DNA of 38,595 nucleotides, taken from NCBI GenBank assembly GCA_039024535.1, contig JBCCQC010000001.1, positions 1 to 38,595 on the forward strand, read 5' to 3'. Source of the stretch: Chloroflexota bacterium. Lineage in GTDB: Bacteria; Chloroflexota; Anaerolineae; Aggregatilineales; Phototrophicaceae. This document shows, one piece after another, positions 5,955 through 6,602 of this stretch. The translations under genes were made by a program, and so were the position numbers. The notes below the pieces were generated by a model. It ran no database searches. It had not been told where the DNA came from and worked only from the letters and a program-made list of their open reading frames with translations. Numbering within the stretch: the stretch's first letter is position 1; the number at the start of each line of letters is the position of its first letter.

Positions 5955-6602
5955 CTAGAACATCGCTCTCTGCACTGGCACTGGCGGTGCATCCACGAAC
6001 GTCAGATCAGCGTTCGCCACGGGTGGCAGGGCTTTGCTGTACATCTGCATCATGTGCCTGTACGTCTGCTCACTGCGCTCTGCGGGTTTGATGTATGGCA
6101 TTCGCAGCAGCCGGAACATAAGCGCCTCGTCCGGTACGCTGACGCGCGAACCGTTGCGCAGCACGTAGCCATCTTCAAGTTTGATGTTGCACGCTTTCTG
6201 TCGCGCATAGCTCACGGCGAACTGGTTGGCTGTGCCGGGGCCGGTGCGCAGCCAGAGGATATACCCGGCGTTGTCCGGGTTGGCAATGAACAGCTCTACC
6301 TTGAAGCCGTCCACGCTAAAGGAGCGCATTCTGTCGCCCCACAGGGTTTTGCCGTCGGACTTGATGGCTTTCTTCAGCTTTTCTTCAATGACGAGCCGAT
6401 CCAGTCGGGCCAGCAGGTTACGGCGTTCGTGTGGGACGCACACGAGATCGGCATCAGCGGTCTGTGGCTTGCCCCGGCGGATGGAACCGGCGACCCAGAC
6501 ATTGCTGCACAGGTCTTCGATGGCGCCGTACACGGTAGCCGCGTGTGTGGCGGCGTCAGACAGGCGCAGGGTTTTGCCGTGGAGGTTCGGGCCTTTGTTC
6601 AT
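5955..6602 (-). CDS. Minimal family-X DNA polymerase / Pol-beta-like nucleotidyltransferase (palm plus thumb only, similar in size to ASFV Pol X)
   Basis: VAGSIRRGKPQTADADLVCVP matches the GSxRRGK..D.DL motif. FKVELFIANPDNAGYILWLRTGPGTANQ matches xxLDLF...FTGP. VPDEALMFRLLRMPYIKPAERSE matches the Pol beta/ASFV C-terminal E..LG..Y..P..R. Confidence 0.75.
   Translation of the reverse strand: MNKGPNLHGKTLRLSDAATHAATVYGAIEDLCSNVWVAGSIRRGKPQTADADLVCVPHERRNLLARLDRLVIEEKLKKAIKSDGKTLWGDRMRSFSVDGFKVELFIANPDNAGYILWLRTGPGTANQFAVSYARQKACNIKLEDGYVLRNGSRVSVPDEALMFRLLRMPYIKPAERSEQTYRHMMQMYSKALPPVANADLTFVDAPPVPVQRAMF

Follow-up and report, generated by a model that had tools for sequence, protein, structure and literature searches.

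To our knowledge, two-subdomain DNA polymerases had until now been represented by a single case, the polymerase X of African swine fever virus (ASFV Pol X; O174L, 174 amino acids (aa); PDB 1JAJ and 5HRB). Built solely of a palm and a C-terminal thumb, this enzyme has long served to probe the minimum of protein required for templated synthesis and fidelity. Because ASFV Pol X is devoid of both the 8-kDa and the fingers subdomains, these should be considered typical of family X and not strictly defining. The bacterial enzymes of the Thermus (PDB 3AU2 and 3AUO) and Bacillus subtilis YshC type, also called “PolX1”, comprise about 570 aa and possess both subdomains together with a PHP exonuclease/apurinic-apyrimidinic (AP) endonuclease domain. 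A further, non-canonical Pol X group, PolX2, has been defined computationally (Nucleic Acids Res 2026; PMC12926913). Its members, which occur in bacteria, archaea, eukaryotes, and viruses, lack the 8-kDa and PHP domains, bear an extra alpha-helical C-terminal domain, and have a conserved active site like the PolX1 aspartates; none of them has been studied experimentally (PMC12926913). Here we describe a gene for a minimal Pol X-family polymerase of 215 aa, which lies at positions 5955..6602 on the minus strand of contig JBCCQC010000001.1 (assembly GCA_039024535.1, Chloroflexota bacterium). The whole analysed stretch of 38,595 nucleotides (nt) is referred to below as the window, and the product of the gene as the window protein. 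The gene was recognized from the list of open reading frames (ORFs), Pfam thumb and palm matches, the comparison of a family profile with PDB, a structural model, and Foldseek.

It is nearly certain that the window protein is a Pol X homologue consisting of palm and thumb only. Taken alone, it gives three Pfam matches, all under the curated cut-offs: DNA_pol_B_thumb (E 5.7e-5, 23.3 bits with a cut-off of 25), DNA_pol_B_palm (E 0.0094), and NTP_transf_2 (E 0.24). A sequence search against PDB likewise yields weak matches, and all those listed down to E ~1 are Pol X enzymes. A family profile built from 34 members matches residues 156-319 of Thermus thermophilus PolX with E 2.3e-14, followed by Pol lambda (E 1.8e-8), Pol mu (~1e-6), and ASFV Pol X (1.9e-5). 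Thus, of the HMM search advised in an earlier note on this DNA, the family-profile part is significant, while the single-sequence Pfam part stays below threshold. With the sequence of PDB 1JAJ as the ASFV Pol X reference, hhalign aligns ASFV residues 27-173 with residues 28-176 of the query at 92.6% probability.

The predicted structure points the same way. The AlphaFold2 model (pLDDT 92.8, pTM 0.88), whose DSSP elements are compatible with a palm plus a thumb, retrieves only Pol X enzymes among its best 50 Foldseek matches in PDB (Thermus PolX, Pol lambda, Pol beta, Pol mu, and ASFV Pol X). The best of them is Thermus PolX (E 3.5e-11, TM 0.70, rmsd 2.6 Å), the TM score for ASFV Pol X is 0.69 on the ASFV length, and the alignment to Pol X cores spans 180-198 columns. 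The palm extends approximately over residues 10-110 and includes the Pol beta-type motif G39-S40...D50-x-D52 with the 11-residue spacing of Pol X; the thumb, or nascent-base-pair subdomain, occupies residues ~112-176 and has the x-x-T-G helix start and the terminal P-x-x-R, with T120, G121, and R176 invariant or nearly so, and a tail covers residues 177-215. The match to Pol X begins at residue 156 of the Thermus enzyme and at residue 7-8 of the query, in the first palm helix, with no domain N-terminal to that point, and hence the 8-kDa and fingers subdomains are absent. The palm-and-thumb architecture without these subdomains, proposed in the earlier note, is therefore borne out by the profile matches, Foldseek, and hhalign. 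No match to the polymerase was obtained in PHROGs, NCBIfam, or PADLOC, so that it belongs neither to a catalogued phage family nor to a known defence component. The minimal Pol beta-superfamily nucleotidyltransferase described in “polyvalent proteins” (PMC5512222) was considered as another candidate and rejected, that protein being an MNT-like four-strand domain without a thumb.

The active site was examined by counting conserved residues among 176 relatives in the numbering of the window protein. The motifs pointed out from the sequence beforehand are all there: G39-S-I-R-R-G-K45...D50-A-D52-L-V, V102-E103-L-F105, T120-G-P122, and E159...PYIKPAERSE178. According to conservation and alignments, the segment GSIRRGKPQTADAD (codons 39-52, 6447..6488, minus strand) combines the triphosphate-binding GS-x-RR with the first two metal carboxylates, D50 and D52. 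The triphosphate-binding positions hardly vary (G39 and R43 in 176/176, R42 in 174/176, S40 in 172/176), and the spacing between GS-x-RR and the carboxylates is the same as in Pol X in both the profile and the hhalign alignments. The third metal carboxylate, E103, is located in VELF (codons 102-105, 6288..6299, minus strand), as assigned by hhalign and conservation. It is the equivalent of ASFV D100 and Pol beta D256: hhalign pairs D50/D52/E103 with ASFV D49/D51/D100, and in the profile alignments the catalytic aspartates of Thermus PolX and Pol lambda fall at the same positions. The earlier observation that Glu stands in place of the third catalytic Asp is thereby upheld.

Compared with the canonical Asp-Asp-Asp of family X, all three metal-ligand positions are acidic, and the window protein has D-D-E. 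Position 50 is Asp in 174/176 relatives, position 52 is Glu in 162 and Asp in 13, and position 103 is Glu in 134 and Asp in 38. The resulting triads are D-E-E in 124 relatives, D-E-D in 35, D-D-E in 10 (the window protein included), and D-D-D in 2. Glu is not a sign of decay here, because it is family-wide and most members have it at the second position as well; the retention of three acidic residues in 171/176 relatives argues for a working catalytic centre. Other active-site positions are also kept, namely K/R at position 101 (the Pol beta R254 equivalent, 129/176) and N126 (the Pol beta N279 equivalent, 160/176). The start of the thumb helix, RTGPG (codons 119-123, 6234..6248, minus strand; conservation and alignments), is marked by R119 and T120 in 172/176 each and G121 in 176/176, with R119 in place of the Phe of “FTG”: the same site is F506 in Pol lambda (“YFTG”), F116 in ASFV Pol X (“HFTG”), and part of “YLTG” in the Thermus enzyme. 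Judging from this conservation pattern, the polymerase is probably catalytically active.

The comparison with described enzymes refines the initial designation of the protein as ASFV-like, which holds for the architecture and not for the sequence. ASFV Pol X and the window protein share the palm and C-terminal thumb, the “x-D/E-L-F” strand with the third carboxylate, and the “TGP” at the thumb start, and ASFV Pol X, as anticipated, is among the Foldseek matches of the model, whose predicted fold is that of Pol X. Sequence kinship is weak, with the profile E-value of ASFV Pol X many orders above that of the bacterial PolX core. A specific kinship is not borne out, since bacterial PolX and Pol lambda score better and the pocket residues differ: ASFV H115-F116 corresponds to L118-R119, ASFV R127 to V130, and the D-D-D triad of the ASFV enzyme to D-D-E in the window protein and mostly D-E-E in the phage family. 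Moreover, the host contexts differ: ASFV, a cytoplasmic virus of eukaryotes, brings its own set of base-excision-repair proteins, whereas the present enzyme belongs to a phage that appears to depend on a bacterial replisome. By both profile and structure, the closest relative is the PolX1 core; unlike the full-length PolX1, the window protein has no 8-kDa, fingers, or PHP domain, and its D-D-E and “LRTG” replace D-D-D and “YLTG”. The nearest published category is PolX2, with which it shares the absence of the 8-kDa and PHP domains, and some long members of the family have helical C-terminal extensions. Compared by description only, the window protein differs from PolX2 in lacking the helical C-terminal domain and the fingers and in belonging to a D-E-E family.

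A second distinctive feature is located behind the thumb. The initial description placed PAERSE at the C-terminus; this motif in fact ends at residue 178, and the chain runs on to residue 215. That description thus overlooked a tail of 39 residues, which follows the invariant, thumb-closing R176, the exact point at which the ASFV enzyme stops. The chain terminates in P-V-Q-R-A-M-F-COOH, and QRAMF (codons 211-215, followed by the stop codon; 5958..5972, minus strand) is predicted from conservation against controls to be a beta-sliding-clamp-binding motif at the extreme C-terminus. The pattern Q-x-x-[LM]-[FLW] forms the exact C-terminus in 78/176 relatives and lies no more than three residues from the end in 85/176, whereas among control ORFs drawn from the same DNA 16/2558 (0.6%) C-termini match it. 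With the most frequent residue chosen at every position, the motif reads QLSLF, often with a Pro two residues before the Q, and it is typically found ~25-45 residues past R176. In longer relatives it occurs either at the same distance from the thumb (e.g., QASLFDD, QLVLFDL) or at the new extreme C-terminus.

Mobile elements often carry accessory polymerases. QxxLF is the accepted bacterial beta-clamp-binding consensus, and clamp motifs have been reported for polymerase groups of the A, B, C, and Y families and for none of family X (PMC12926913); our own literature search turned up no Pol X described as having such a motif. Clamp-binding accessory polymerases, such as Pol IV/DinB, Pol II, PolA2, and the plasmid-borne Pol V homologues, likewise bear a short QxxLF-type motif, typically at or near the C-terminus, by which a non-replicative polymerase is brought to the beta clamp (PMC12926913). 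These are right-hand enzymes of the Y, B, or A family, whereas the window protein has the Pol beta nucleotidyltransferase fold, and none of them is a two-subdomain enzyme of ~200 aa. On the strength of the motif, its position, and the control frequencies, it is fairly likely that the window protein binds the beta clamp.

The family is large. All its members known to date come from uncultured tailed phages or phage-plasmids, apart from those in one metagenome-assembled genome (MAG) of Chloroflexota. A word-indexed search returned 4 relatives and a profile search 35, while 1.84 billion cluster representatives, scanned exhaustively with HMMER, yielded 2,415 at E<=1e-3 (449 of them at E<=1e-10 and 18 at E<=1e-30). 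No relative was detected among 50,697 GenBank phage records by megablast/tblastn with three family members, E. coli genomes gave no match to the polymerase, and in PLSDB plasmids the only match was a full-length Ralstonia polX with 28% identity. In BFVD, the best structure matches, at <=21% identity, are Pol X of giant viruses and a few entries without a name. The terminase of the window is <=33% identical to that of any isolate phage. The sole genome matches come from two contigs of the Candidatus Flexifilum breve (Chloroflexota) MAG.

Considering these features together, we lean slightly towards an active, gap-filling, two-subdomain family-X enzyme that is predicted to be tethered to the host clamp. 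In such a scheme, the GS-x-RR loop would take the incoming nucleotide triphosphate, two metals would be held by D50, D52, and E103 (by D-E-E in most relatives), and the thumb helix (R-T-G ... N126) would close on the nascent base pair. The 39-residue tail with QRAMF, if flexible, would tether the enzyme to the host beta clamp, standing in for the DNA-gripping 8-kDa and fingers subdomains, and would bring it to 3′ ends loaded with a clamp. There it might fill gaps or repair phage DNA by short stretches of synthesis while the host replisome copies the element, which itself would contribute to replication no more than the iteron-containing initiator gene and ParA/ParB. Possible partners in some relatives are an ASCH protein, a HerA-type ATPase, and a DnaQ-like exonuclease. 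The biological role is the more tentative part: gap filling or repair is a serious possibility whose probability we put somewhat below even, and the repair or counter-defence role flagged as inference in the earlier note keeps that standing.

With this family, a large and independent group of bacterial-virus enzymes joins ASFV Pol X in the minimal architecture. Three testable differences set it apart from other Pol X: the Glu-based metal site, the invariant Arg at the sugar, and the apparent clamp tether. If the tether is real, use of the beta clamp would extend to family X. For phage biology, the protein points to an accessory polymerase carried by an uncultured phage or phage-plasmid lineage, in a role that would parallel that of plasmid-borne translesion polymerases. 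A clamp-dependent polymerase of 20-25 kDa could also serve as a tool.

Several observations weigh against the proposed clamp-tethered gap-filling enzyme. The D256E substitution in Pol beta lowers activity about a thousand-fold (PMC5499815), so a Glu-based site may work slowly or be adapted to a different substrate or metal. In place of the template-contacting Arg (Pol beta R283, Pol lambda R517, ASFV R127) there is a Met or Val. R119 occupies the spot that in other Pol X is taken by a Phe or Leu packed against the incoming sugar, so that substrate choice could differ. The tail is modelled fairly confidently (pLDDT 76-88) and thus may pack on the domain instead of being free. In addition, the tether is not universal, since a subfamily without a tail and motif exists (e.g., P0025-P0034 and many IMG/VR loci; P-numbers denote polymerase relatives and L-numbers related loci); its members stop at the thumb, are ASFV-sized and more distant, and have Asp at position 103.

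The same peculiarities of the active site lead to another explanation, which we regard as unlikely: an active but non-templated nucleotidyltransferase, i.e., a terminal transferase or a ribonucleotide-adding or tailing enzyme working on DNA or RNA 3′ ends, possibly in order to modify phage DNA ends or to counter host defence. The unusual D-E-E triad, the replacement of the sugar-packing Phe by R119 together with the loss of the template-contacting Arg, and the presence of ASCH partners would all fit it, as ASCH domains are generally tied to the recognition of RNA or modified nucleic acids. Yet the thumb is complete and keeps the equivalent of Pol beta N279 in most relatives, the alignments reveal no long loop 1 of the TdT/Pol mu kind, and the clamp-binding motif implies action on clamp-loaded duplex DNA. 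Furthermore, the structural neighbours retrieved by Foldseek are all templated Pol X or TdT/Pol mu, with no CCA-adding enzyme, poly(A) polymerase, or cGAS-type protein among them.

The genetic context of the polymerase brings in replication of the element as a whole. The first >=100 nt of the window (1-130) recur at its end (38466-38595), indicating that the contig is circularly closed or terminally redundant, with a size of ~38.5 kb. The plus strand encodes a terminase, an SPP1-type portal, MuF-like genes, and two tyrosine recombinases (15838-16803 and 17978-19192). On the minus strand, the polymerase is part of an operon with the order ParA, ParB-HTH, T5orf172-type protein, 456-aa protein, N6/N4 methyltransferase, small ORFs, polymerase, zinc-ribbon protein, and ASCH protein. 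It is headed by a partition module (11006..13076) of ParA (12186-13076, minus strand) and a ParB-HTH protein (11006-12181, minus strand), both recognized by Pfam and PHROG; the ParA/ParB pair, the circular or terminally redundant contig, and the two recombinases together suggest a phage-plasmid lifestyle. The 456-aa product of 8962..10332 (minus strand) is a putative replication initiator whose family profile assigns it a C-terminal DnaA-domain-I-like domain (E 2.3e-8 against domain I of B. subtilis DnaA, 4TPS). Inside its gene, Tandem Repeats Finder locates ~5.5 copies of a 22-bp repeat, ATGTGCGATTTTGCGACATGC, at 9762..9884, which encode the repeated peptide SHIAGSKTAH.MSQDR. The lambda O gene carries an internal origin, and the repeats look like iterons, or a candidate origin, embedded in the initiator gene in the same way. 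Between the ParB and initiator genes lies a protein matching T5orf172/MUG113 profiles (GIY-YIG-related; 10335-11009, minus strand). It also has weak PADLOC matches to components of PDC-S57 (E 8e-6) and PD-Lambda-1 (E 2e-4).

Neither a family A, B, or C polymerase nor a ligase or AP endonuclease was found among 107 neighbour ORFs of related loci or among 28 window ORFs scanned with Pfam, a set made up of the recombinase, terminase, portal, and MuF genes and the greater part of the early operon, with most late structural ORFs lying outside it. The statement of the earlier note that the genome has no ligase or AP endonuclease thus stands for these 28 ORFs. Accordingly, the elements appear to rely on the host replisome, conditions under which an accessory polymerase tethered to the clamp would be sensible. 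The absence of a replicative polymerase from the scanned ORFs would also suit a dedicated origin-proximal or lagging-strand enzyme of the phage-plasmid replicon, acting like Pol I in first-primer extension or the filling of Okazaki gaps, which we consider quite unlikely. This role would agree with the recurrent placement of the gene directly after ParA/ParB and the initiator gene that contains the iterons, and with the DnaB, DnaC-like, primase, and Rep-O genes near relatives. Hosts, however, normally supply Pol I, the census of the 107 neighbour ORFs contains no 5′-flap nuclease or RNase H partner, and minimal Pol X enzymes, as known from Pol beta and ASFV Pol X, are distributive fillers of single-nucleotide gaps.

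Two further early ORFs of the window bear QxxLF-like motifs near their C-termini. One is the N6/N4 DNA methyltransferase ORF (7937-8965, minus strand), ending in ...VQMSLFQERRGS, and the other is an ORF of ~69 aa (4580-4789, minus strand) that overlaps the end of the ASCH gene and ends in ...PKPVQMKMFESVE. Several phage early proteins may be aimed at the host clamp, or the resemblance may be due to chance. It is very unlikely that the polymerase is itself only a clamp-targeting factor, which would use the Pol X fold as a scaffold and occupy the host beta clamp by its motif in order to redirect or inhibit host replication: the strong conservation of the C-terminal motif, the two additional early-operon motifs, and the crippling effect of Glu at a metal position in Pol beta would speak for it, but the near-invariant carboxylates and GS-x-RR and the conserved thumb nucleotide pocket are unexpected for a mere scaffold, and a sizeable subfamily keeps the active site with neither tail nor motif. 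In PKPVQMKMFESVE the motif has the same P-x-Q context as in the polymerase tail. In the methyltransferase homologues of loci L015, L041, and L043 the motif is not clearly kept (the L041 protein ends in PLRLF).

The polymerase ORF, 5955-6602 on the minus strand, is genuine. It starts with ATG, preceded 11 nt upstream by the Shine-Dalgarno sequence AAGGAG, and its start codon overlaps the stop codon of the upstream ORF as ATGA (“tcat” on the plus strand, 6599-6602), so the coupling noticed at the outset is confirmed in the DNA. Only 2 nt separate its stop codon from the start of the next ORF. The upstream ORF (6599..6916, minus strand; 105 aa) encodes a putative small DNA binder according to a match to the I-TevI DNA-binding domain; its first description as “NUMOD-like” rests on this weak Pfam match (E 0.013). 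The downstream ORF of 238 aa (5236..5952, minus strand) displays in its sequence the CxxC...CxxC pattern of a zinc ribbon, in agreement with the initial description, and has no family match in Pfam, PHROGs, NCBIfam, or PADLOC. It is followed by a 156-aa ASCH-domain protein (4782..5252, minus strand), identified by phmmer, whose family is fused to or adjoins this polymerase family in other phages. The ASCH assignment is sound although the ORF has no direct Pfam match, because the protein shares homology (E 1e-22 to 1e-24) with N-terminal domains passing the Pfam ASCH threshold.

The neighbourhood of the gene was surveyed in 51 related loci, comprising 41 IMG/VR viral contigs (mostly 25-48 kb), two contigs of the Flexifilum breve MAG, and several metagenome contigs. 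Gene neighbours were defined by same-strand ORF calling and clustering, and 18 of the loci make up the close subfamily. Near the polymerase of these close loci, ParA and a ParB-like protein are encoded in 9/18 each and a DnaA-domain-I-like initiator in 8/18. The Pfam census of the 107 neighbour ORFs adds DnaB, DnaC-like proteins, primase, Rep-O, DNA methyltransferases, and two RNase_T exonucleases to the partition proteins. Such a survey, which had been recommended in the earlier note, divides the neighbours of the window gene into two kinds: ASCH recurs with the polymerase, and the NUMOD-like and zinc-ribbon genes do not. The 105-aa ORF has a homologue in only 1/48 related loci, where it does not adjoin the polymerase, and the 238-aa ORF has none among them; a conserved operon of the NUMOD-like and zinc-ribbon genes with the polymerase was thus rejected.

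The ASCH protein of the window matches the N-terminal domains of two relatives (phmmer), P0086 (E 1.5e-22) and P0146 (E 1.3e-24), both above the Pfam ASCH threshold. P0086 is composed of ASCH, a DprA/SLOG-like domain, and then Pol X, and P0146 of ASCH and then Pol X, while in L042 a separate ASCH gene directly precedes the polymerase gene, and L036 has one close by. P0119, P0124, and P0145 combine the polymerase in a single chain with an ATPase domain of the HerA/FtsK type (Pfam DUF87, E 1e-10 to 3e-14). In L001, the gene for a 418-aa RNase_T/DnaQ-like 3′-5′ exonuclease (6570-7826, plus strand) overlaps the end of the polymerase gene (6001-6639), and the second RNase_T match is found among the neighbours in other loci; in some lineages this exonuclease is a possible proofreading or end-trimming partner. 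The ASCH and HerA/FtsK fusions and the adjoining RNase_T exonuclease point in general terms to the processing of DNA ends or gaps. The broadest interpretation, which we advance with reserve as short of an even chance, is that the ~2,400 clusters, spread among temperate, uncultured phages or phage-plasmids, represent the first family-X lineage to use the beta clamp, with a Glu (D-E-E) metal site, an Arg in the sugar pocket, and a QxxLF tether replacing the 8-kDa and fingers subdomains, and that together with ASCH, HerA, and DnaQ partners they would constitute a gap-repair or counter-defence pathway having no cultured representative.

Longer members of the family show additional features. P0086 has 718 aa, and its C-terminal region after Pol X bears an “NGHHR” ParB/sulfiredoxin-like motif. 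Many relatives of 300-450 aa (the long relatives include P0108, P0133, P0151, P0156, and P0171) contain past the clamp motif an uncharacterised domain with W-x-x-P-W-L (e.g., FEWERPWL), while a separate group of long relatives has helical extensions with an “E-R-x-Y ... MARH” signature. As for gene order, L049 (an NCBI MAG contig, GCA_029974915.1) and L004 share the arrangement ParA-ParB-PcfJ-polymerase, and L049 also encodes a TIR_2-domain protein (10578-11342, plus strand) ~2.6 kb downstream of the polymerase.

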